A stretch of 43,070 bases of DNA from Candidatus Rifleibacteriota bacterium. Lineage in GTDB: Bacteria; Muiribacteriota; Ozemobacteria; Ozemobacterales; Ozemobacteraceae. How positions within the stretch are numbered: position 1 is the stretch's first letter; each line of letters opens with the position of its first letter. Shown here one piece after another: positions 9,989-34,362 of this stretch. Under the pieces are notes generated by a model. It had not been told where the DNA came from, did not search any database, and was given only the letters and a program-made list of their open reading frames with translations. The stretch covers positions 1 to 43,070 of the forward strand of contig JBNJGH010000020.1 in the NCBI GenBank assembly GCA_051747585.1, in the 5' to 3' direction. The translations under genes were made by a program, and so were the position numbers.

Positions 9989-11236
9989 ATGAACAATAAC
10001 AAGGCAGGTTTTGAACAACGGCTCGAAAAGGCATTTAACCATCCGGACAGTTTTCTGGAAACGATGGCTAAAGAATTTGACCATTATGACGAAGCAAAGT
10101 TGAAAACTCTGGTAGGGGTCTTTGCGGAGGGCGGGACGGTCGAACAAAGTCTTGTTTCTGAATTTGGCGTTAAAAAGCTTGATGAACCAGCCCTGGAATT
10201 TCTGGCTACCCAACTGGATGAGAATAAACCTGAGGTTTTTATTCAGATTGCAGAAATTCTTGGGCAGCGTAATTTTATTAAAGCTCTTGATAGAATTTGG
10301 AAACCCGTAAAGGAAAACAATTCTCGACTGATAATGCCCGTAATAAAGGCTGTGTCAAAATTTGAGCAGAACAATCTGGTAGATAAGCTGCTATTAGATT
10401 TTTACCTCACCCACGAAGATGAAAGCAGGCTTTTTTCCTGTATAAGGTTCCTTTTGCCTCGACAGGAGTCTATTGTACACAAACTGCTTGAGAGTTACAG
10501 AGGGTTAGATGCTGATCGCAAAATGTGGGCTTTAAAGTTCCTTGCCGAAACCGGTAATCCCGAAGCTCTTAGGCTTTTTGCAGATGAACTCGATCATATG
10601 CCTCTCGAACGAGGGCTTTACTGTATTTCCGGCTTGGGTCGCATCGGAAAACAAGCTTCAGTAAAAATATTGTTGAAGAATATAAATCATCCTGAATGGT
10701 TTTTGCGCAAAAGGATTATTGAAGCTCTGGGGCAAACGGGGCAAGTAGAAGCTGTGCAGCCCGTAATAAAAATGCTGGAAGATGTTTCGGTGCAGGTTAG
10801 AGCTGCTGCTGTCGAAAGCTTGAGCAAACTCGGGCATCTTAATCCTGAAATGATAATAGATAAGCTTAAAAGCAGCTCGGGCGACCTTAAAATAAATTTA
10901 ATCAGGGCAATAGCTCAGTTAAAAAGCGAAAAATTTGTTGCTCCACTCATAGAAGAGCTTAATGATAAAAATACTTTGTTTTTTACCGTCGATGCTCTGG
11001 GCGATCTGGGGTCTCTTGAAGCAGAAAAACCTCTAAAAAAGCTGCTGCTAGATAAAGAGTGGTTCAATAGATTAAACGCCCTCGAGGCTTTAGCCAAGTT
11101 GCCTTTAAACAATAAAATGGTAGAAATAGCAAGAGGGCTGACAAATGATCATAATGATATGGTAAGAACCTCTGCCGCTCGCATTGTTTCCAGTAGAAGG
11201 TCAGCGGCAGAAGAAGAAGAAGAAGAGGTTAATTAA
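9989..11236 (+). CDS. HEAT/PBS-lyase repeat protein
   Basis: Repeated units such as WFLRKRIIEALG, VQVRAAAVESL, WFNRLNALEAL. Confidence 0.85.
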   Translation: MNNNKAGFEQRLEKAFNHPDSFLETMAKEFDHYDEAKLKTLVGVFAEGGTVEQSLVSEFGVKKLDEPALEFLATQLDENKPEVFIQIAEILGQRNFIKALDRIWKPVKENNSRLIMPVIKAVSKFEQNNLVDKLLLDFYLTHEDESRLFSCIRFLLPRQESIVHKLLESYRGLDADRKMWALKFLAETGNPEALRLFADELDHMPLERGLYCISGLGRIGKQASVKILLKNINHPEWFLRKRIIEALGQTGQVEAVQPVIKMLEDVSVQVRAAAVESLSKLGHLNPEMIIDKLKSSSGDLKINLIRAIAQLKSEKFVAPLIEELNDKNTLFFTVDALGDLGSLEAEKPLKKLLLDKEWFNRLNALEALAKLPLNNKMVEIARGLTNDHNDMVRTSAARIVSSRRSAAEEEEEEVN

Positions 11237-12741
11237 TCTTCGCCTTTTTTGCCGAATACAATTCGCTGGGCATTCAAAAGAATAATAATTTTATTGTCTA
11301 TTTTGCCCACACCCTTGAGATATTCAATATCTACGTTTTCACTAACTCTGGCAGGTGGCTCTATCGATGTTTCAGGTAACCTGATAACCTCTGAAACGGA
11401 ATCTACCATAAAGCCGGCTTTGACCTTTTCTTCTTCGAAGGCCAGTATGATAATCTGGCTATCTTTGAAGCTGGCTAAAGTAGGCAATTTAAGACGCCGT
11501 CTTGTATTGATAACCGGAACTATTTCACCTCTAAGGTTAATTACTCCATCTATATGTGGAGGGGCTTTGGGTACCCTGGTAATGGGAACCATGTTGATAA
11601 TCGCTTCGACCTGATGAATTTCGAGCGCATACATTTCTCCGGCCATGCCAAAAGTGACCAGCTGAACCATTTCAATGATTTCTTTGTTTTCTTCATCTTC
11701 ATCCTCATCTTCGTCTTGCTGTGGCTGCTCTGAAGACTGCTCCCCGGATGGTTGTTGGGCGGGAGCCGGAGCTGCAGCTGGTGCTGATGGAGCTGCCGGG
11801 CCCGATGAGGGTGGCGGAGAAGGTACATGAACCTCGGTTTCCTGGGGAACTTCAGCCGCCGGTTGCGGAGCGGGTTCTGCCGGAGGCGGTGAGGCACTGT
11901 CGCCAAGTGAGTCGGTAATATCTTTAAGCTCGACCGATTCAATTTCTGATATTGATTCAATACCTTCTTGTATTTGCTCGTCCTCCTGATCTGTTGTCAG
12001 GATCATTTTGAAAGAAGATTCGAATTTTTCATTTTCAAGGTCCTTGACTTCAGGTATTGATTTGACAATGTCGCAATGTGTATCATCAAGGGTTCTTAAA
12101 ACCATGAAAATACGCGGGCCTTTGAGCAGACAATCAGAAACAAGAGAAATTTTAAGCAGCACTACTCTTTTACCCTCATCTCCTGCTGCAGAAAGGCCTG
12201 ATAAATCGAAGTCACTTAATTCGAAATCTGCTATTTCAGTATTCGCCCCACCTTGAGACTGCTTTGCCGATTGGGGTTGTTCCTGACCGGCATCAGTTGC
12301 AGCTTGTGGTTGCTGGGCTGCCGGTGGAGGTGAATCCTGTGCTGCTGTTGGAACCTGTCCGTTTGCCAGTGCCGAAAGTTTGCCTGAGATTTCATCCAGG
12401 CCTACATTTGAATCTGTTTGTTCGATACTGTCGCTTACCAGAGTTCTTAAAACGTCAAAAGTTTCGAATATTATGTCTACTACTTCTGTGGTAACAGGTA
12501 TATCTTCATTGCGCAGTTTGTCTAAAACTGTTTCCATCTCATGGGTCAGGTGAGCTATTTTTTCGAAGCCCATGGTCGCCGACATACCCTTAAGGGTGTG
12601 GGCTGCACGGAAAATTTCTTCGACTGCATCAAGGTTAGAAGGGTTCTGCTCAAGGTTGAGCAGCATTTTATCCATGGTGTCGAGATTTTCCCGGGAACCG
12701 TCTATATAGGCACCCATATATTCGGAAAGATCTAGATTCAA
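11233..12741 (-). CDS. HPt (P1)-P2-CheW fusion protein lacking the kinase core
   Basis: FRAAHTLKGM HPt motif, CheA-P2-like segment, CheW-type C-terminus (ITRVPKAP..GVINLRGEIVPV). TTG start after AAGGAGG. Confidence 0.85.
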   Translation of the reverse strand: MNLDLSEYMGAYIDGSRENLDTMDKMLLNLEQNPSNLDAVEEIFRAAHTLKGMSATMGFEKIAHLTHEMETVLDKLRNEDIPVTTEVVDIIFETFDVLRTLVSDSIEQTDSNVGLDEISGKLSALANGQVPTAAQDSPPPAAQQPQAATDAGQEQPQSAKQSQGGANTEIADFELSDFDLSGLSAAGDEGKRVVLLKISLVSDCLLKGPRIFMVLRTLDDTHCDIVKSIPEVKDLENEKFESSFKMILTTDQEDEQIQEGIESISEIESVELKDITDSLGDSASPPPAEPAPQPAAEVPQETEVHVPSPPPSSGPAAPSAPAAAPAPAQQPSGEQSSEQPQQDEDEDEDEENKEIIEMVQLVTFGMAGEMYALEIHQVEAIINMVPITRVPKAPPHIDGVINLRGEIVPVINTRRRLKLPTLASFKDSQIIILAFEEEKVKAGFMVDSVSEVIRLPETSIEPPARVSENVDIEYLKGVGKIDNKIIILLNAQRIVFGKKGED

Positions 12742-12784
12742 CCCTTAACCTCCTTGAATGTAAATTTAGTAATTTTCATAGTTG

Positions 12785-15130
12785 TCATTTTATATTTTTG
12801 GCTTTCTGAAAGAAAGACGGAATATCGAGAATAAGAGCAATGCTACCGTCACCGCGCATGGTTGCACCCATTATACCGGGCAGACCGCCAAGAAGGTTCC
12901 CAAGCGATTTAATAACGATTTCCTGTTGGCCCACAAGTTCATCGACCATGAATCCGGCGCTTTTTTCTCCGGAAGAACATACAACTATAGCAATTTCTTC
13001 CTCTTTAGCTTCAATTTCTTTTTGCTCATCTTCTGAGGTGGGAACATCTAATACTTTTCTCAATCTGATTATGGGCAGCACATCTCCTCTAAGCAGTGTG
13101 ACTTCCTGATGCTGCACAATATTGATGTCACTTTTGGTAATATCCATGGTTTCCTGAACAGAGGCAAGTGGAATAGCTAAGGTTTCAAGACCAACCTTGA
13201 CCATAAGAGCCGGTAGAATTGCCAGCGTGAGAGGCAGTTTTATAATTATTCGGCTACCCTCGCCAACTTTTGATTCTATATCGAGTTGACCGTTGAGGTC
13301 TTCAAGCTTTGCTTTAACCGCATCCATGCCGACACCACGACCAGAAACGTCGCTTACTACCTGGGCAGTAGAAAAACCTGGCAAGAATATTATTTTTATA
13401 ATTTCTTCGGGTGGCATTTCATTTATTTGTTCAGTGGTAAAAAGGCCTCTTTCAACGGCAAGTCTACCTATAATAGAAGGATCAACGCCCTTGCCGTCGT
13501 CTTTAACTTCGATGATTACATTATTGCCTTCATGCCGGGCAACCAGGGTAATTGTTCCCGCCTCTGGTTTCCCTTTAGTTACTCTTTCTTCAGGCGCTTC
13601 GATTCCATGATCTATGGAATTTCTGATCAGGTGAACCATTGGATCGCCGATTTCGTCGATAACTGTACGATCCATTTCGGTTTCTTTTCCTTCAACTACC
13701 AGATTAATTTTTTTGTTAAGTTTTTTAGACAAGTCTCTAACCATTCGAGGAAAGCGATCGAAGACTTGTTCGATAGGAACCATTCTTACCTGCATAACCA
13801 CGTTTTGCAGCGAAGAACTTATTTGGGAAACTCTTGTAAGAGTTTCGTTGAGGTCTTTTAACTTATGGGCAGCACCGATATCCTGCAATCTGGTGCGATT
13901 TATAACAAGTTCACCGACCAGATTCATAAGCTCATCAAGCCTGCGCATATCTACACGAACAGTCTGACTGCTTCTCCGGTCTGCTGCAGCGGCTTTCTTT
14001 TTCTTTTTAGCTCCAGGCTTTGCTGGAGGGTTCCCCGGTGGCTTTCCACCTGGTGGTGCAGGCCTTGCTGCTGCCGGAGGTTTGGGCGGAGCTGCCGCTG
14101 GTTTTGGTGGGGCTGCCGGTTTTGCTGCCTGAGGCTGCTTTGGTTCTGCAGGCATGCTTCCTGTCTTTGGGGGGGCGGGTTGAGCAGGCTCTTTCGCCGC
14201 TGGTGGAGCGGCTGGCTGTGGAGGAGGCTCGGGTTTCTTTTGCGGTGCCGGGGCTTCAGGTTGAACCGTGATCTCTGCCGGTTGTAAAGAAAAGTCTTCG
14301 GGGGTAAGGGGCGTAAGCTTAACCGAAGCGATTTCTGAAATAGATTCAATACCTTCTTGAATCGTTGCTGTATCGGCTTGGCCTATTATTACCATTTTAA
14401 AAGAAAGGTCAAACTTTTCTTCTTCAATGTCTTTTGTATCAGGAACAGTTTTAATTATTTCGCATTCAAGTTCTTCGAGGTTTCGGGTAACCATGAATGC
14501 GCGAGGTGCTTTAAGCAGGCAATCAGGCTCGAGCGAAACAATCAGCAGATAAATATTTGAGCCCTGTTGCTGCGCTTCTTTTAAAACCTGAGTTTCAAAT
14601 TCATTAATGGTTATGTCGGCAAGTTCAATCGCTAATTGCGAGGTATCTTGAGCCGGTTGTTCTTCGCCCTGGGCAGATTCTTGACTGGTAGCAGCAGGTT
14701 CTTCCTGCGTTTCAATAGGTTTAGCTTCATGTTTGGTTGGACTTTTTCCCTGAGCAACCTGATTTAATTTTTCAACTATTTCATTAATATCTATATTGGA
14801 ATCTGTTGCTTCAATGCTGTCATTTACCAGTATGCGCAAAAGATCGAAAGTTTCAAAAAGCGCGTCGATTAGATCGGTTGTAACCTGAACCTGGTGATTT
14901 CTTAACTGGTCAAGAATATTTTCCATCTCGTGGGTAAGGTGGGCAACCTTTTCAAAACCCATGGTTGCCGACATACCCTTCAATGTGTGGGCAGCACGAA
15001 AAATTTCTCCTACTGCTTCAAGATTTGTTGGATCCTGTTCAAGCGACAGGAGAAATTTGTCCATGAGGTCGAGGTTCTCTCGGGAACCATCGACATACAT
15101 TCCCATATATTGCGACAGATCAATATCCAT
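12785..15130 (-). CDS. cheA: Chemotaxis histidine kinase CheA
   Basis: HPt, P2, dimerisation (VRVDMRRLDELMNLVGELVI), HATPase (HLIRNSIDHGIE, DDGKG, GRGVGMD) and P5 domains. Start moved to ATG at 15130, after GGAG. Confidence 0.98.
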   Translation of the reverse strand: MDIDLSQYMGMYVDGSRENLDLMDKFLLSLEQDPTNLEAVGEIFRAAHTLKGMSATMGFEKVAHLTHEMENILDQLRNHQVQVTTDLIDALFETFDLLRILVNDSIEATDSNIDINEIVEKLNQVAQGKSPTKHEAKPIETQEEPAATSQESAQGEEQPAQDTSQLAIELADITINEFETQVLKEAQQQGSNIYLLIVSLEPDCLLKAPRAFMVTRNLEELECEIIKTVPDTKDIEEEKFDLSFKMVIIGQADTATIQEGIESISEIASVKLTPLTPEDFSLQPAEITVQPEAPAPQKKPEPPPQPAAPPAAKEPAQPAPPKTGSMPAEPKQPQAAKPAAPPKPAAAPPKPPAAARPAPPGGKPPGNPPAKPGAKKKKKAAAADRRSSQTVRVDMRRLDELMNLVGELVINRTRLQDIGAAHKLKDLNETLTRVSQISSSLQNVVMQVRMVPIEQVFDRFPRMVRDLSKKLNKKINLVVEGKETEMDRTVIDEIGDPMVHLIRNSIDHGIEAPEERVTKGKPEAGTITLVARHEGNNVIIEVKDDGKGVDPSIIGRLAVERGLFTTEQINEMPPEEIIKIIFLPGFSTAQVVSDVSGRGVGMDAVKAKLEDLNGQLDIESKVGEGSRIIIKLPLTLAILPALMVKVGLETLAIPLASVQETMDITKSDINIVQHQEVTLLRGDVLPIIRLRKVLDVPTSEDEQKEIEAKEEEIAIVVCSSGEKSAGFMVDELVGQQEIVIKSLGNLLGGLPGIMGATMRGDGSIALILDIPSFFQKAKNIK

Positions 15131-15256
15131 CAATTGCTCCGGCAAATTTCTTTGATTGATAGAATAATATGCAACATGAATTAAACATTATACAGTAAAA
15201 TCGGTAATAATTGGGAAAAATATTATAATTCAAGGCAGTTTCAGCATATAAAAAAG

Positions 15257-17745: not shown

Positions 17746-18591
17746 TTAAAATAATCCTGGTAATTGATAAATCAGACTTTCGGATAAACAATAGAGAAAA
17801 TCTCTTGAAGACGGTTCTACCGCCGTTATTCTTGCTCTAAGGTTGGCCTTGTTTTCCGGTGGAATGTAAGTGCTATTAGAAAGTACCATTCCTGCAGGGA
17901 CAAGGTCAAGAGCCAAAAATTGTTTTGCAACATTTTTTATTCTTGGACTAATAGGCTCTTCTGGTGCTGAACTGGTGGGTGATATGTCCAGAAGACCAAT
18001 TGGTGAAAAGTATCCAGATAAATGGATAGATTTAACCGCTTCATAAACGCTTAAAAGAGAATCTTTATGAAAGGGAACGGTAACGCATACTGCATCGGTT
18101 GCGTGAAGCAGGGGATAATATCTGGGTAACTCACTTGCTTTAATGCTTATCCATACCTCAGAAAAAGGCTTTAAGACTCTTGCCAGATGCTGTAAAAAAT
18201 CAATACGTCTGGCCTCTGGTCCTTTGCATATTTCTATAAACGATTCCACCTGAGGCATAATGCTTAAAGGCGTCAACCCCTGTTCGATTCGCAAAGGAGT
18301 TGGATAGCTGAGCTGAATTTGAGTTCGGGGTAGTCGTTCTTTTTCAATGAAGCCGGCTTGATCCCAATAGCAGGACCTTGGCGAGTGCTCCATCAATGCA
18401 ATTATCCAATCGATTACCGGTGGAATTCCTTTAATAATATTGTCTGGTAAAACTAAAGCCATGCAGGTAAAGGGGCAGGGCTTGACAATTGTATCTAAAA
18501 AGGTTTCGCCGTCAATCGGCTTCTTTACAGCTGTTTCAGACTGATCTACGATTTTTTTCAGTCTCCTTAATGTGGTTGCCTGGTCATTCAT
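17746..18591 (-). CDS. Degenerate FlhG-like protein (no Walker A) with DQAxxLR N-terminus
   Basis: Starts MNDQATTLR. An 81-residue segment aligns without gaps to the neighbouring FlhG (17 identities by hand count). Confidence 0.7.
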   Translation of the reverse strand: MNDQATTLRRLKKIVDQSETAVKKPIDGETFLDTIVKPCPFTCMALVLPDNIIKGIPPVIDWIIALMEHSPRSCYWDQAGFIEKERLPRTQIQLSYPTPLRIEQGLTPLSIMPQVESFIEICKGPEARRIDFLQHLARVLKPFSEVWISIKASELPRYYPLLHATDAVCVTVPFHKDSLLSVYEAVKSIHLSGYFSPIGLLDISPTSSAPEEPISPRIKNVAKQFLALDLVPAGMVLSNSTYIPPENKANLRARITAVEPSSRDFLYCLSESLIYQLPGLF

Positions 18592-28353: not shown

Positions 28354-31110
28354 TTACCTCTTAAGATTTACAACTTCCTGAAGAATTTCGTCGGAAGTGG
28401 TTATAACTCTTGAATTAGCCTGAAAGGCTCTTTGAGTGGTAATCATATTGGTGAATTCTTCAGAAATATCAACGTTACTCATTTCAAGAGAAGCAGGAAC
28501 AATGACGCCACGATCCATCTCGCCGGCTTTTCCTACTATTGGCTGGCCCGAATTAGGAGAAAATGAATACAGATTCTTACCCATCTTTTCAAGCCCACCC
28601 GGATTATTAAAGGTCGTCAGCGCCATTTGCCCGATTGGTTGCTTCTGACCATTACTGTAAACGCCACGAATGATTCCGTCTTCTTCAAAGTATATTTGCT
28701 CAAGCAGACCCATTTCGTAACCGTCCTGGCTTCTCGCTTTTGTGGTGAAGTCAGAGTCAAATTGAGTTATAAGCTCAGTGTCTAATTTAATACTTAAAGG
28801 ATTGCTTCCTTCCGGTTTCATTTTAACGTCTTGAACGAATGAGCGACCAAGATCGATTTTTCCGTTTTCTTGGAAAAACAGTGTGCCTTCGCGATCGGTA
28901 AGTAATGCATCGTTGGCGCGTTCAAGGTCGTCATCGGTAGGATCCTCGGGGTCAGCTATGTTGTTGGCAGGATCTTTAAGCCAGGCTTGAATTTCGGGAT
29001 CATCATCGGAATATCTGACCTTGTAAATCCACTCCATAGATTCGCTGTTAGTATGTTCCCATTCTGTAACAAGTCCATGTTTCGCACCCAGGGAATCATA
29101 AACGATTATGTTGGTAGAATGCTTTGCTCCCTCGTTTACTGCCCCGGTAATTTCGAAGGTTTCATCATTAACAGTAGTAGCAAATTTAAGAGTTTCTGAC
29201 GAAGGCTGAGGCACATATATGTTAACTGAGTCTGAAGCACCTTTTTCTTCAGTGGTACTGAAATTCATGGTTTCGTTAGGCAACCATTGGTTTAAGCCTT
29301 CAGTAAGAGTGAATGAAAGGCCACCAGAGTCGAACTCACTTATCGCAGCTGTGCCATTGGTTGTGCCGGCACTTAAGCCAAGCTGATTCATACTGTTGTT
29401 ACCCGAAAGAATTACCTGTTCACCAGATCCTGACTTGGAACCGGTTATAACCAGCTGATCAGGACTCCCGTCATTGTTGGTATCTGAAAAAGAGGCTGTC
29501 GCAGAAACGTTTTCCTGAGCAAGCTTCGAGTTGATCTCCGCCAGAATTGCGCCCCTGGTATAGATCTGATTGTTTCCTGCAAGCTCATCGCTGAAGCTTA
29601 TTAAAGCAGAATGTCCGTCTCGGTCGGTTATAGTAAAGCTTACATCGCTGGCCGGATCCCATACGTCATTTGCCGGATCATAGGCCGTGCTGTTTGCAAT
29701 TGCCAAAGCTTCGTCACTGAAAACTTCAGGCCGTGCACCACCAGTCCCGTTTGCAACCTCTTCGGTAAACCCAAGGTCAGCGAAATCGCCGGACGAATTG
29801 AGAATTTCGATTTCCTTATTGCTGCCTTCTTCGTTGCTTACAATTTGAAATTGTTGGGTAACAGAGTCGTAATATGCAGAAGCTCTTACGCCATTGTTTT
29901 TCATAGCCGTATTGATGTTATCTGTTATATCAGAGGTAGAATAAGTAGTACCGGCATCGAAATTTACAGTGGCGACTCTAGGTGGGTTGAACTGATTGTC
30001 TGCTATGTCAAAGGATGTGTTTGTTGCAGGAGTCCAATTTGCCCCAAAACCAACTGTAGTTCCTTTAATTCTAGCTTGTTCTCCACCCAGGGTTCCTGCA
30101 CCAATAAAGCCGCGTTCTGAGCCTACAACTCTATAAGAAGTTGCTCGGGTGGGATCGCCACCATCGAAGATTATTTGAACGTTTTCGTCTGTAACTTCAT
30201 TGCCTTCGGCCAATACTCCGGAACTGATGCCATCCCCCGTATTGCTTATTTCATTTATAGGCATTGTCGCAGTTGCGGGTTGAGGACTTCCGTCAGGGTC
30301 GTAGGTGAAGTAAGGCTCTGACGTTGTTGAGGTATCGCCACTAGGTTCTACGGAACTTTCTATAACATTTCCGCTGGCATCAGTTTTGATAGTGCCTGTT
30401 GCAACATTTCCCTCGCTTTCGTCATTTGCCGACCAGATCCAGTTTGTTGAATCCAGCTTTTTGAATTTGAACGAAAGGTTCTGAAAATTGCCTTCACTAT
30501 CTTTAAATGTAAGTGTATCCAGACCAAATTTAATGTCTCTTTCTTCAGAGCCGCTGTCAAGATTTGAGGCATAATGAATTTCGTTGGTCTGATGAGAATG
30601 TTTTTTAAGATACTTGGTAATATTTATGTCGTATGGCACGACCCCGGTTTCTTTCATTTCAAGGTTCCCGGTCTCGGGATCCTGGGTAGCTAACCAGCCT
30701 TGCATTTTGTAGCCGGTGTTGGCCATAACCATATCGTAGTTAGGATTTATGTTTAGATTTCCGTCTCTTGTGTAGTATGTGTTTCCATCATACCCTCTGG
30801 TGGCAAAGAACCCGGAACCTTCGATGGCAACATCGGTTTGTTTCCCGGTTCCTTCTATGGCACCCTGGTCCATCAGAGTGTCAATCGAAGCATTCTTAAC
30901 GCCCAGACCAACCTGCATCGGGTTTAAACCTCCGTAAGATCCGAAGGCTTGCTGTCCATGTCTTAGTGTCTGTGAAAACAGATCCTGAAACATGACTCGA
31001 CCTCTTTTAAATGCAGTTGTATTGACGTTGGAAATATTATTACTTACAACGTCCATTTTTGTCTGGTGCTGCTTAAGACCCGTTACTCCCGTAAATAAAG
31101 ATCTAATCAT
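28354..31110 (-). CDS. flgE: Flagellar hook protein FlgE, unusually large (918 aa)
   Basis: MIRSLFTGVTGL, NNISNVNT, YTRDG, LEMSNVDISEEFTNMITTQRAFQANSR. Confidence 0.95.
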   Translation of the reverse strand: MIRSLFTGVTGLKQHQTKMDVVSNNISNVNTTAFKRGRVMFQDLFSQTLRHGQQAFGSYGGLNPMQVGLGVKNASIDTLMDQGAIEGTGKQTDVAIEGSGFFATRGYDGNTYYTRDGNLNINPNYDMVMANTGYKMQGWLATQDPETGNLEMKETGVVPYDINITKYLKKHSHQTNEIHYASNLDSGSEERDIKFGLDTLTFKDSEGNFQNLSFKFKKLDSTNWIWSANDESEGNVATGTIKTDASGNVIESSVEPSGDTSTTSEPYFTYDPDGSPQPATATMPINEISNTGDGISSGVLAEGNEVTDENVQIIFDGGDPTRATSYRVVGSERGFIGAGTLGGEQARIKGTTVGFGANWTPATNTSFDIADNQFNPPRVATVNFDAGTTYSTSDITDNINTAMKNNGVRASAYYDSVTQQFQIVSNEEGSNKEIEILNSSGDFADLGFTEEVANGTGGARPEVFSDEALAIANSTAYDPANDVWDPASDVSFTITDRDGHSALISFSDELAGNNQIYTRGAILAEINSKLAQENVSATASFSDTNNDGSPDQLVITGSKSGSGEQVILSGNNSMNQLGLSAGTTNGTAAISEFDSGGLSFTLTEGLNQWLPNETMNFSTTEEKGASDSVNIYVPQPSSETLKFATTVNDETFEITGAVNEGAKHSTNIIVYDSLGAKHGLVTEWEHTNSESMEWIYKVRYSDDDPEIQAWLKDPANNIADPEDPTDDDLERANDALLTDREGTLFFQENGKIDLGRSFVQDVKMKPEGSNPLSIKLDTELITQFDSDFTTKARSQDGYEMGLLEQIYFEEDGIIRGVYSNGQKQPIGQMALTTFNNPGGLEKMGKNLYSFSPNSGQPIVGKAGEMDRGVIVPASLEMSNVDISEEFTNMITTQRAFQANSRVITTSDEILQEVVNLKR

Positions 31111-31130
31111 AGCACAGTTTCCTTTTCATA

Positions 31131-31332
31131 CGGCTTAATGTGCCGATAAACCGATCAGTCAGTTCCTTCTTTCCATCGGTAGCTCCCAGATGGGGGAGCA
31201 GCCAACCGAAAGAGAGCTATAACACCTCGTGTGATGCTCTCTTAACGGCTAACATGCTGGGAAAAAGCTCAGCTGTTTTAACGCCTTCGGTCGTTCGGGC
31301 GCTTAAGACTTCCCCGGGAGGGGTCCGGCCTT
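31131..31332 (-). ncRNA. Putative structured cis-regulatory RNA (seven consecutive stem-loops) in the flgE leader
   Basis: Hand-folded stems at 31305-31332, 31280-31303, 31251-31277, 31204-31250, 31182-31199, 31150-31180 and 31131-31145. More GC-rich than the adjoining A/T-rich spacer. Confidence 0.65.
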
Positions 31333-31339
31333 GTTATCA

Positions 31340-31392
31340 GATTTGTTTGCTTTTTATTTTTTCAGCTTTGCCTGTTCCCGATTTGTTTGCTT
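31340..31392. repeat. 13-bp direct repeat GATTTGTTTGCTT, 40-bp period
   Basis: Identical copies at 31340-31352 and 31380-31392. Partial TGTTTGCT at 31421-31428. Confidence 0.7.
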
Positions 31393-31432
31393 CCTTAATT
31401 CTGTAGTTAGTGCATTTTACTGTTTGCTCTCC

Positions 31433-31837
31433 TTAAATATTCTTCATACTTACACTATCTATATTTGTAACGATTCCGTCCTGCATTTCATCAACGCTCA
31501 TAGCTGTTATCATTGTCCGGTTCGGAACATTAACCAGAAACGCAGCTTCTTTTGTTATAATCAGAGAATCTTTTGCTCCTCTGTCTTCCAGCTCATTGAG
31601 AGTAAGATTTAAAGAAGCTTTTAGCTCATCGCTCAAGATAATGTTTCGATCAGCCAGACGGTTGGTAGCGTGTGCACTTATGCGAATCGGCTCCGTTGCA
31701 GGAGTTTCCAGTGCCCGGTTAAACAGATCAATGAATTTTTTGTTGTTGCCTGAAGTTTGGCTTGTATTTGTTCTGTTTAAGGGTATCCTGGTCCCCAATT
31801 GTGGGCTTTCAGGCCCGATCATTAGTCTGGGATCCAT
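31433..31837 (-). CDS. Flagellar operon protein, TIGR02530 family
   Basis: ISAHATNRLADRNI, GAKDSLI, FLVNVPNRTMITAM, VTNIDS. Sits between flgD and flgE. Confidence 0.9.
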   Translation of the reverse strand: MDPRLMIGPESPQLGTRIPLNRTNTSQTSGNNKKFIDLFNRALETPATEPIRISAHATNRLADRNIILSDELKASLNLTLNELEDRGAKDSLIITKEAAFLVNVPNRTMITAMSVDEMQDGIVTNIDSVSMKNI

Positions 31838-31908: not shown

Positions 31909-32376
31909 TTATGCAGATTCGTCTGCTGAATCGCCTGATTCTGATGGATACATGGTGGGGCTGACTATCTGAACTTCGTCGATTGTAAAAGAATGCTCGC
32001 CAACTTTGAGATAGGGTGTTCCACTTTCAAAGCCGATCATTTCAACTACACCGGTAACCGGTTCTTCAAGACTTTGTTTTGTTGCTGTGACTGTAGTCCC
32101 AAGGAATCGCATTGCATCGCTTTTCTGATTTGATTTGAATTCTTGAACAAAGCCTTCAATATTTTCGTTCATATTGAGCATCTGTTCTAATGAACTGAAA
32201 CTTGACATCTGGCTGATGAATTCCATATCTTCCATTGGATTCATGGGATCCTGGTTTTTCAGCTGTTCAGTGAGAAGAAGAAGGAAGTCGTCTTTGCCGA
32301 GTTCCGAACTCGGATTGCGCTTTGTCGATGTGCCGTGTACGCTGGTAACTGGTACATCTACAGTGTCAATTGGCAT
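31909..32376 (-). CDS. flgD: Flagellar hook capping protein FlgD
   Basis: LGKDDFLLLL..QLKNQDPMNPM...FISQMSSFSSLEQM. Confidence 0.96.
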   Translation of the reverse strand: MPIDTVDVPVTSVHGTSTKRNPSSELGKDDFLLLLTEQLKNQDPMNPMEDMEFISQMSSFSSLEQMLNMNENIEGFVQEFKSNQKSDAMRFLGTTVTATKQSLEEPVTGVVEMIGFESGTPYLKVGEHSFTIDEVQIVSPTMYPSESGDSADESA

Positions 32377-34221: not shown

Positions 34222-34249
34222 TTATCGTCTTCTTTGTTCTTGAATCTTA
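34222..34249 (-). promoter_or_regulatory. Putative sigma-28 (FliA/SigD) promoter of the fliK operon
   Basis: Minus strand TAAG-N16-GACGATAA versus consensus TAAA-N15/16-GCCGATAA, ending 45 bp before the fliK start. Confidence 0.6.
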
Positions 34250-34362
34250 GTTTTATTTTTTTGTGCAAAATGCACAAAGCTGCTTAAAATTTTTCGCTCA
34301 ATGATTATCAACCTTTTACAAAAAACATCCCTCATCCCAGGCCGCAAAGCCAGAATTAATTA

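Follow-up and report, generated by a model that had tools for sequence, protein, structure and literature searches.

A 43,070-nucleotide (nt) stretch of DNA from Candidatus Rifleibacteriota bacterium (assembly GCA_051747585.1, contig JBNJGH010000020.1, positions 1 to 43,070), hereafter the window, carries a pair of RNA hairpins, P1 and P2, between a gene of the TIGR02530/PF12611 family and flgE, the hook protein gene. We found that P1/P2 is a widespread RNA element that recurs across phyla and is uncatalogued. The TIGR02530 protein is a strong candidate for its partner and probably acts on this RNA, and we infer a mechanism in which the protein would cut the element and damp hook synthesis. 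The case is built on a covarying fold, the place of the element in the fliK-flgD-TIGR02530-flgE run, retention or loss in step with the gene, a copy at an orphan flgE, and invariant residues of the protein.

The element lies in a minus-strand flagellar operon consisting of fliK, flgD, an open reading frame (ORF) of 134 amino acids (aa), flgE, flbD, fliL, fliM, fliY and cheY, followed on the same strand by fliO, fliP, fliR, flhB, flhA and chemotaxis genes. A preliminary description of this DNA had placed a TIGR02530-type gene between flgD and flgE, which is where the 134-aa ORF stands. It had also pointed to an unusually long gap before flgE, and this gap measures 322 nt, against -4 to 91 nt at the nine other junctions from fliK to fliP. 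The elements in question are as follows.

31433..31837, minus strand: TIGR02530/PF12611 gene, 134 aa, between flgD and flgE
31305..31332, minus strand: P1, a stem, 3x1 internal loop, stem and variable tip; supported by covariation, the most widely kept element
31280..31303, minus strand: P2, a stem with the 12-nt loop NGAN-YGAY-NGAN; strong covariation
31120..31124, minus strand: AAGGA ribosome-binding site of flgE, from the sequence
28354..31110, minus strand: flgE, hook protein, 918 aa, the presumed regulated gene; family matches
31909..32376, minus strand: flgD, hook cap; family matches

A similar P1/P2 pair had been suspected in Firmicutes, and we found it in Bacillota and many other phyla. 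Downstream of loci selected by their protein, both hairpins occurred in Riflebacteria, Bacillota, Rhodothermia, Fibrobacterota, Hydrogenedentota and others, and P1 without P2 in some records of Bdellovibrionota, Ignavibacteria, Zixibacteria and Armatimonadota. From a seed of 31 sequences aligned with MAFFT we built a covariance model, R1. The covariation check named in the preliminary description came out positive: in the seed, 87.0% of the cells were paired, compared with 66.5% after shuffling, and two-sided changes occurred at 13 of 16 pairs. R1 scored 83 of 90 protein-selected sources (31 of these being the seed loci), and three of the seven misses were cut by contig ends. A second set of 100 non-seed sources yielded 89 scores; in its 88 distinct non-seed rows 96.0% of the cells were paired, against 33-45% in slid controls, with two-sided changes at 15 of 15 pairs. 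Since most Bacilli and Fibrobacterota sources of this set had been pre-picked by an R1 match and the alignment was fitted to the model, it informs covariation and not frequency. Chosen by protein alone, 30 Bdellovibrionota loci were scored by R1 in 20 cases, and P1 was recognized by eye in the other ten. A strict parser applied to 197 distinct loci found P1 in 171 (shuffles 5.5%) and P1 with P2 in 152.

The position of the element is also regular. Outside Riflebacteria, a median of 28 nt (15-71, n = 113) separates the end of P2 from the start of flgE; in Riflebacteria, P1/P2 stands about 170 nt away from the start codon. There is one copy of the motif in this genome, and nearly all other motif-bearing genomes searched likewise have one. 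In two loci (L169 and L173) the P1 tip is enlarged by AT-rich repeats of ~70-90 nt, with the internal loop and P2 intact. Weak R1 matches arose in non-flagellar contexts (L168, L177, L193, L297, L298 and L299). The last of these sources, from the same phylum, holds a near-perfect P1 hairpin (L299:1540-1585) in a fetched stretch where flgD, flgE and TIGR02530 were unmatched; it may be due to chance or mark another target.

In agreement with the earlier failure to recognize any named riboswitch class, none of the 4227 Rfam families reached its gathering score in the window, and matches at E ≤ 10 were at chance level. Two orphan structured RNAs ahead of flagellar genes, Termite-flg (RF01729) and flg-Rhizobiales (RF01736), have been described (PMC2864571). 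Neither matches P1/P2. Termite-flg was rejected, with no match at E ≤ 10 in this genome and no P1/P2 in its published sequences, and both flg-Rhizobiales and the c-di-GMP riboswitches were absent among the Rfam matches at E ≤ 10. A conserved fold ahead of a gene, with loop nucleotides that do not vary, is what a metabolite riboswitch or a self-cleaving ribozyme would show. We nevertheless hold such a function to be extremely improbable: the element is only ~55 nt long and down to P1 alone in several lineages, it is tied to one protein gene, no intrinsic terminator was found on the coding strand, and there is no consistent switch at the ribosome-binding site.

We then compared the distribution of the motif with that of the TIGR02530 gene, whose co-occurrence had been put forward as a test. 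Searches of more than 40 genomes applied strict filters and scored only the best candidates, so that weak copies may escape. Within these limits, R1 found no copy ahead of flgG in the genomes sampled. Among 151 Bacilli genomes, flgD was found in 112, TIGR02530 in 71 and an R1 match in 61, and all 61 genome-wide matches were directly behind the TIGR02530 gene. Ten gene-positive Bacilli had no genome-wide match; two of them score locally (34.6 and 35.2 bits), and the other eight comprise four clear variants, two altered motifs, one with P2 only and one without the motif. None of the 41 flagellated gene-negative Bacilli showed the motif. With the filters off, 40 of their junctions contained nothing above 10.8 bits, and at the 41st the gap is just 18 nt. 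A quick FlgE tree built from 60 positive and 41 negative Bacilli rows shows 13 switches of the label, at least 6 of them forced. Nine Bacilli (L157-L165) have their best FlgD match elsewhere in the genome and none found near the gene; despite this, gene, motif and flgE stay together.

The same association was seen in other groups. Of 150 Clostridia scored, 56 had flhB and 50 the gene, with an adjoining motif match in 45 and five more identified by eye. Six gene-negative, flhB-positive Clostridia gave no match, and their four locatable junctions were short and motif-free. Motif matches were found in 16 of 101 Fibrobacterota genomes, 15 of them at the gene-flgE junction. A Clostridia genome (G268) contains a second copy of the motif (L167:1806-1862) before an orphan flgE, which is followed by a flgK-like gene and has no TIGR02530 gene nearby. 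Therefore, the element belongs to the flgE message.

Gene and element could instead be linked passengers. The RNA would then act on flgE without the protein, through stability, pausing, ribosome standby or a host factor, and co-loss would reflect adjacency. This would fit with P1 often beginning at the stop codon of the gene (25th percentile of the distance, 4 nt) and with the orphan flgE copy retaining the motif with no gene alongside. It is distinctly unlikely, however, considering that 6-13 changes left the motif in none of the 41 gene-less Bacilli or the four Clostridia junctions, that P1 is altered in the very clade whose protein diverges most, and that P1+P2 lack a folding-energy advantage, as for a ligand-stabilised fold. 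The clade in question (L150, L152, L154, L155 and L235, all Bacilli) combines a divergent protein with an altered or lost motif and no csrA match, and offers a natural test of protein-RNA co-evolution.

This clade also bears on CsrA, which might bind the GGA motifs on both strands of P1 and repress flgE as it does on flagellin leaders, leaving the TIGR02530 protein at most a modulator. In the clade, P1 GGA has become UGC (one event); csrA is present in this genome and in most other motif carriers tested, and the P4 hairpin described below has a loop reading AGGAN in 4 of 28 relatives. Conversely, none of five motif-carrying Rhodothermia genomes (one complete) matches csrA, 33 of the 41 motif-less flagellated Bacilli have it, and the third GGA base is C or U in 35 of the 171 parsed loci. 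CsrA is thus neither needed nor sufficient for the motif and was rejected as its determinant, and its acting as the repressor is highly improbable. The CsrA-FliW system reportedly controls flagellin through its leader. Both cases concern an abundant axial subunit controlled after transcription by way of a GGA-bearing leader, but here the motif does not track csrA, it is the hook gene that would be targeted, and the partner is encoded in cis.

In the window the leader extends beyond P1/P2, and further stems were assigned.

31256..31273, minus strand: P3, a weak 4-bp stem in the minimum-free-energy fold
31201..31253, minus strand: P4, a long Riflebacteria-specific hairpin with a C-ANGAN-G cap (loop 31230-31226), from pair probabilities
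31131..31199, minus strand: P5 (31199-31182), P6 (31180-31150, weak) and P7 (31145-31131), a lineage-specific extension

The preliminary description drew all seven stems as almost gap-free. In-context pair probabilities were 0.61-0.94 for P1, 0.78-1.00 for P2, 0.81-0.98 for P4, 0.61-0.63 for P5, 0.34-0.53 for P6 and 0.87-0.93 for P7. By these predictions P4 and P7 are firm, P5 is moderate and P6 is weak; P3 is weakly supported. In relatives the P3 region overlaps the base of P4, giving alternative pairings. P2 lies at 31303-31280 with the 12-nt loop CGAA-CGAC-CGAA, as described, and P7 ends 20 nt 5' of the flgE ATG, with AAGGA downstream at 31124-31120. P1 has the position and stem claimed for it (31332-31305). 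The C·A position next to its internal loop shows wobble-like covariation, however, which favours a 3x1 loop with GG[A/C/U] facing A/G. A kink-turn reading of P1 was ruled out, as the required adenine varies. The P2 sequence is compatible with a K-loop-like structure with tandem G·A pairs; P2 is lost or replaced in some lineages.

Against shuffled controls, the fold of the 202-nt leader had a z-score of -2.73, with 1 of 200 shuffles as good. The advantage expected of the leader was therefore found for its full length, and the signal comes from the 3' part (z -3.47), whereas P1+P2 alone have none (z 0.09). Consequently, P1+P2 are supported by covariation and not by energy. On a MAFFT alignment of 32 relatives, RNAalifold recovered P1, P2 and part of P5 alone, so that column-wise covariation of P3-P7 is not established. 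Among the loci examined, P3-P7 are confined to the family of the window, where the extension is stable (median z -3.7 in 31 relatives) and a C-ANGAN-G-capped hairpin is present in 28 of 31. NGAN, the repeated unit of the P2 loop, is also seen in the loops of P4 and P6, which could provide extra sites for one protein. The conserved unit is accordingly not a set of seven hairpins: it is the two hairpins P1/P2, often P1 alone, and P3-P7 are a Riflebacteria-only extension.

The protein encoded ahead of the element matched TIGR02530 with 80.4 bits (E 1.3e-22), below the cut-off of 83.2, and Pfam PF12611 (Flagellar_put) with 24.1, above the cut-off of 21.1. The TIGR02530 cut-off was passed in 9 of 31 genomes of the relatives search. 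The family comprises 2,237 clusters at 50% identity, and in a 2026 flagellar-gene survey it is still listed as 'function unknown' (PMC13277936). Two segments of the protein stand out.

31646..31678, minus strand: S54-x-H56-A57-x-x-R60-x-x-x-R64 helix, candidate active-site or RNA-binding residues
31721..31735, minus strand: F35-I-D-L-F39, candidate FlhB gate-recognition (export) motif, from its conservation

A poorly ordered N-terminus of ~28 aa (predicted local distance difference test about 50 for residues 1-30) is followed by a helix with an FxxxΦ motif (Φ, hydrophobic) and a predicted BECR-like core (residues ~50-131). This core is predicted to fold like a BECR-type ribonuclease (RNase), with an alpha/beta core and a short preceding helix. 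According to a recent study, colicin-like and RelE-like BECR ribonucleases include DUF4258/Ntox49 and T4 RegB (10.64898/2026.08.28.747851). In the model, the likeness extends to a conserved His and Arg in the short helix and a Thr on the last sheet strand. H56, A57 and R60 are conserved in 188 of 188 homologs, T111 in 187 and R64 in 182, and His and basic residues fall at BECR active-site elements as placed by secondary structure alone. The RelE/DUF4258-like fold suggested earlier receives weak yet consistent support, and the DUF4258 (PF14076) cut-off is missed. The window protein was unmatched; helix 54-64 weakly resembles DUF4258 positions 1-20, and the best of 60 homologs scanned reached 19.1 of 25 bits over these positions.

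The gene was unmatched in 14 control genomes, including E. coli, B. subtilis, Caulobacter and Thermotoga, and its absence there is a possible reason for the module having been overlooked. A tblastn search returned no homologs in plasmids or viral contigs, and one unannotated phage-collection record matched. One preprint terms a phage G gene TIGR02530-related (10.1101/2024.12.16.628780); this gene was not recovered in our homolog searches. We found no account of the motif or of the protein's function in the literature searched, though supplements (above all those of PMC11109978 and of two bioRxiv preprints) and subscription papers may hold one. Flagellar terms were absent from the accessible supplement text of PMC8632094 and PMC6429828 and from the accessible main text of PMC11109978.

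A toxin-like predicted fold, strict adjacency and co-loss, and no antitoxin-like gene at the locus are also what one would expect if the released P1/P2 were an RNA antitoxin inhibiting a harmful RNase, with flgE control secondary. Contigs from RNA libraries span the leader in 4 of 4 RNA runs examined, all from one salt-lake study in which DNA is not excluded. In three of the four runs flgE is largely uncovered and three leader contigs stop near P6; strand, ends and level are unreadable from contigs. In type III toxin-antitoxin systems such as ToxIN, an RNase-fold gene is likewise inherited with an adjoining structured RNA. Here, however, the element is single and non-repeated, with no tandem repeats found, and it lies 3' of the gene in a housekeeping operon, anchored to flgE. 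In most lineages its place is fixed, 15-71 nt ahead of the start of flgE, and the extra G268 copy goes with flgE and not with the protein gene; both facts make an antitoxin role very unlikely.

The N-terminus shows a feature that was absent from the preliminary description. The gate-recognition motif of exported flagellar subunits has the general form FxxxΦ. In an alignment of 150 rows, F was found in 150 of 150 and a hydrophobic residue at +4 in 150 of 150. Of 168 locus-derived homologs, 167 carry FxxxΦ at 10-28 residues N-terminal to His56; its median position is 34, and in 159 of the 167 it is at position 30 or beyond, with start codons chosen by a simple ribosome-binding-site score. For comparison, FxxxΦ occurs in a like window in 28% of 1,303 proteins of this genome. 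The linker ahead of it is rich in S, P, G, Q, A and T, and FlgD, FliK and FlgE of the window have FxxxΦ at 31, 33 and 41. Work on Salmonella places the gate-recognition motif of rod/hook subunits (FlgD 36FLTLL40) at least 30 residues from the N-terminus, after a hydrophobic signal (PMC8983047). The TIGR02530 protein has this early-substrate spacing, with FxxxΦ at least ~30 residues in and behind a poorly ordered linker. Judged by these sequence features, the chances that it is exported are evenly balanced.

Taken together, the TIGR02530 protein likely has P1/P2 as its dedicated RNA target; it would bind P1 directly and use P2 as a second site or as the loop to be cut. Cleavage rather than binding alone would be favoured because the Riflebacteria element is far from the start codon and the fold leaves the ribosome-binding site exposed. 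A switch sequestering this site was rejected: P2 lies a median of 15 nt from it, the site is not hidden by the fold, and its opening energies are alike in all states (4.8-5.7 kcal/mol, n = 100). We put cleavage of the element by the protein at slightly short of an even chance. Export would proceed by the rod/hook-type pathway through the FxxxΦ near residue 35. The regulator would be drained during the phase of rod/hook-substrate export, when FlgE is made; after the specificity switch it would accumulate and shut down hook synthesis, as a mirror image of FlgM. The negative sign depends on export by the rod/hook pathway being assumed, and an exported RNase-fold repressor is favoured because negative regulation would give an export signal a purpose. 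Two caveats apply: one deletion can remove the physically linked gene and motif together, and the FxxxΦ helix could instead be structural. The whole chain, in which the protein binds and cuts the element and damps flgE until export drains it, is tentative. That a domesticated toxin-type RNase, itself an early export substrate, would cut the flgE leader as an unrecognised hook-stage checkpoint across phyla is, on balance, doubtful.

Cleavage might also activate. FlgE is required in far more copies than FlgD or FliK, and a cut at P1/P2 could free a more stable or better translated flgE mRNA, raising FlgE above the other two; the N-terminal helix would be structural and P4-P7 of Riflebacteria would shield the new 5' end. 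The same co-occurrence and fold evidence applies, and a stable P4-P7 block does lie 3' of the element. BECR RNases work by 2',3'-cyclic-phosphate chemistry, which leaves 5'-OH ends resistant to 5'-monophosphate-dependent decay. Activating processing is nonetheless unlikely, since it leaves the conserved export-like motif and its spacing unexplained and most lineages have no protective hairpin in the short interval between P2 and the start. When the P2 loop was cut in silico, the ribosome-binding site became harder to open by more than 1 kcal/mol in 36 of 100 loci and easier to open in 11.

The exported repressor would have partial parallels. FlgM is a secreted checkpoint regulator, the anti-sigma28 factor. 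Both would be regulators of flagellar expression whose cytoplasmic level depends on type III export; FlgM is a late substrate inhibiting a sigma factor, whereas the TIGR02530 protein would be exported early, as a rod/hook-type substrate, and act on a single mRNA element. Autoregulatory leaders of ribosomal proteins may be likened to P1/P2 in having a small conserved hairpin, an invariant internal loop and a protein partner from the same operon. By contrast, P1/P2 is internal to its operon and sits 3' to the gene of the presumed regulator, which is itself no structural subunit. We know of no system that combines a secreted checkpoint regulator, an autoregulatory leader and BECR RNase parts.

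These results give TIGR02530/PF12611 a fold prediction, putative catalytic residues, a possible export signal and a candidate target of ~55 nt. If the proposed mechanism is true, the flagellar assembly hierarchy gains a level at which hook-subunit supply is matched to export state, an RNA-level, early-substrate counterpart of FlgM, and a toxin fold has been reused as a single-target regulator. Should the RNA alone hold up, Rfam would still lack a cis-regulatory RNA family that spans phyla.

Two features upstream of the element concern the transcript.

34222..34250, minus strand: sigma28-like promoter TAAG-N16-GACGATAA before fliK, by consensus match
31344..31427, minus strand: A-rich unfolded spacer with three GCAAACA repeats (31427, 31390, 31350), fold z +0.76

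The promoter call relies on likeness to the sigma28 consensus, and the same form is found in 12 of 33 relatives' loci, several of which end short upstream. Because this promoter stands before fliK, the element probably sits within a polycistronic mRNA, which the promoter likely drives. A hook operon under a sigma28-like promoter would depart from the enteric hierarchy. The spacer's resemblance to a c-di-GMP riboswitch found no support in Rfam and was set aside. Of 38 family loci listed, 34 contain 1-4 GCAAACA repeats, which are possible binding sites for a further protein.

Several other observations were made in the operon. At 918 aa, FlgE is about twice the usual length, with a big central insertion that weakly matches Flagellin_IN. 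In fliK, contigs from two RNA runs skip 195 nt (33870/34066; 65 codons, in frame), possibly a shorter hook-length-ruler allele in the same population or a library artefact. A tandem pair of CheA-like genes lies at 11233-15145 (minus strand); the shorter protein (502 aa) has Hpt, P2 and CheW domains, and its kinase domain was unmatched in the family scan. Between flhA and an flhG-like gene, a 281-aa ORF (17746-18591, minus strand) has no Pfam match at E ≤ 1e-4. A MinD-like gene stands ahead of an flhF-like gene in the window.
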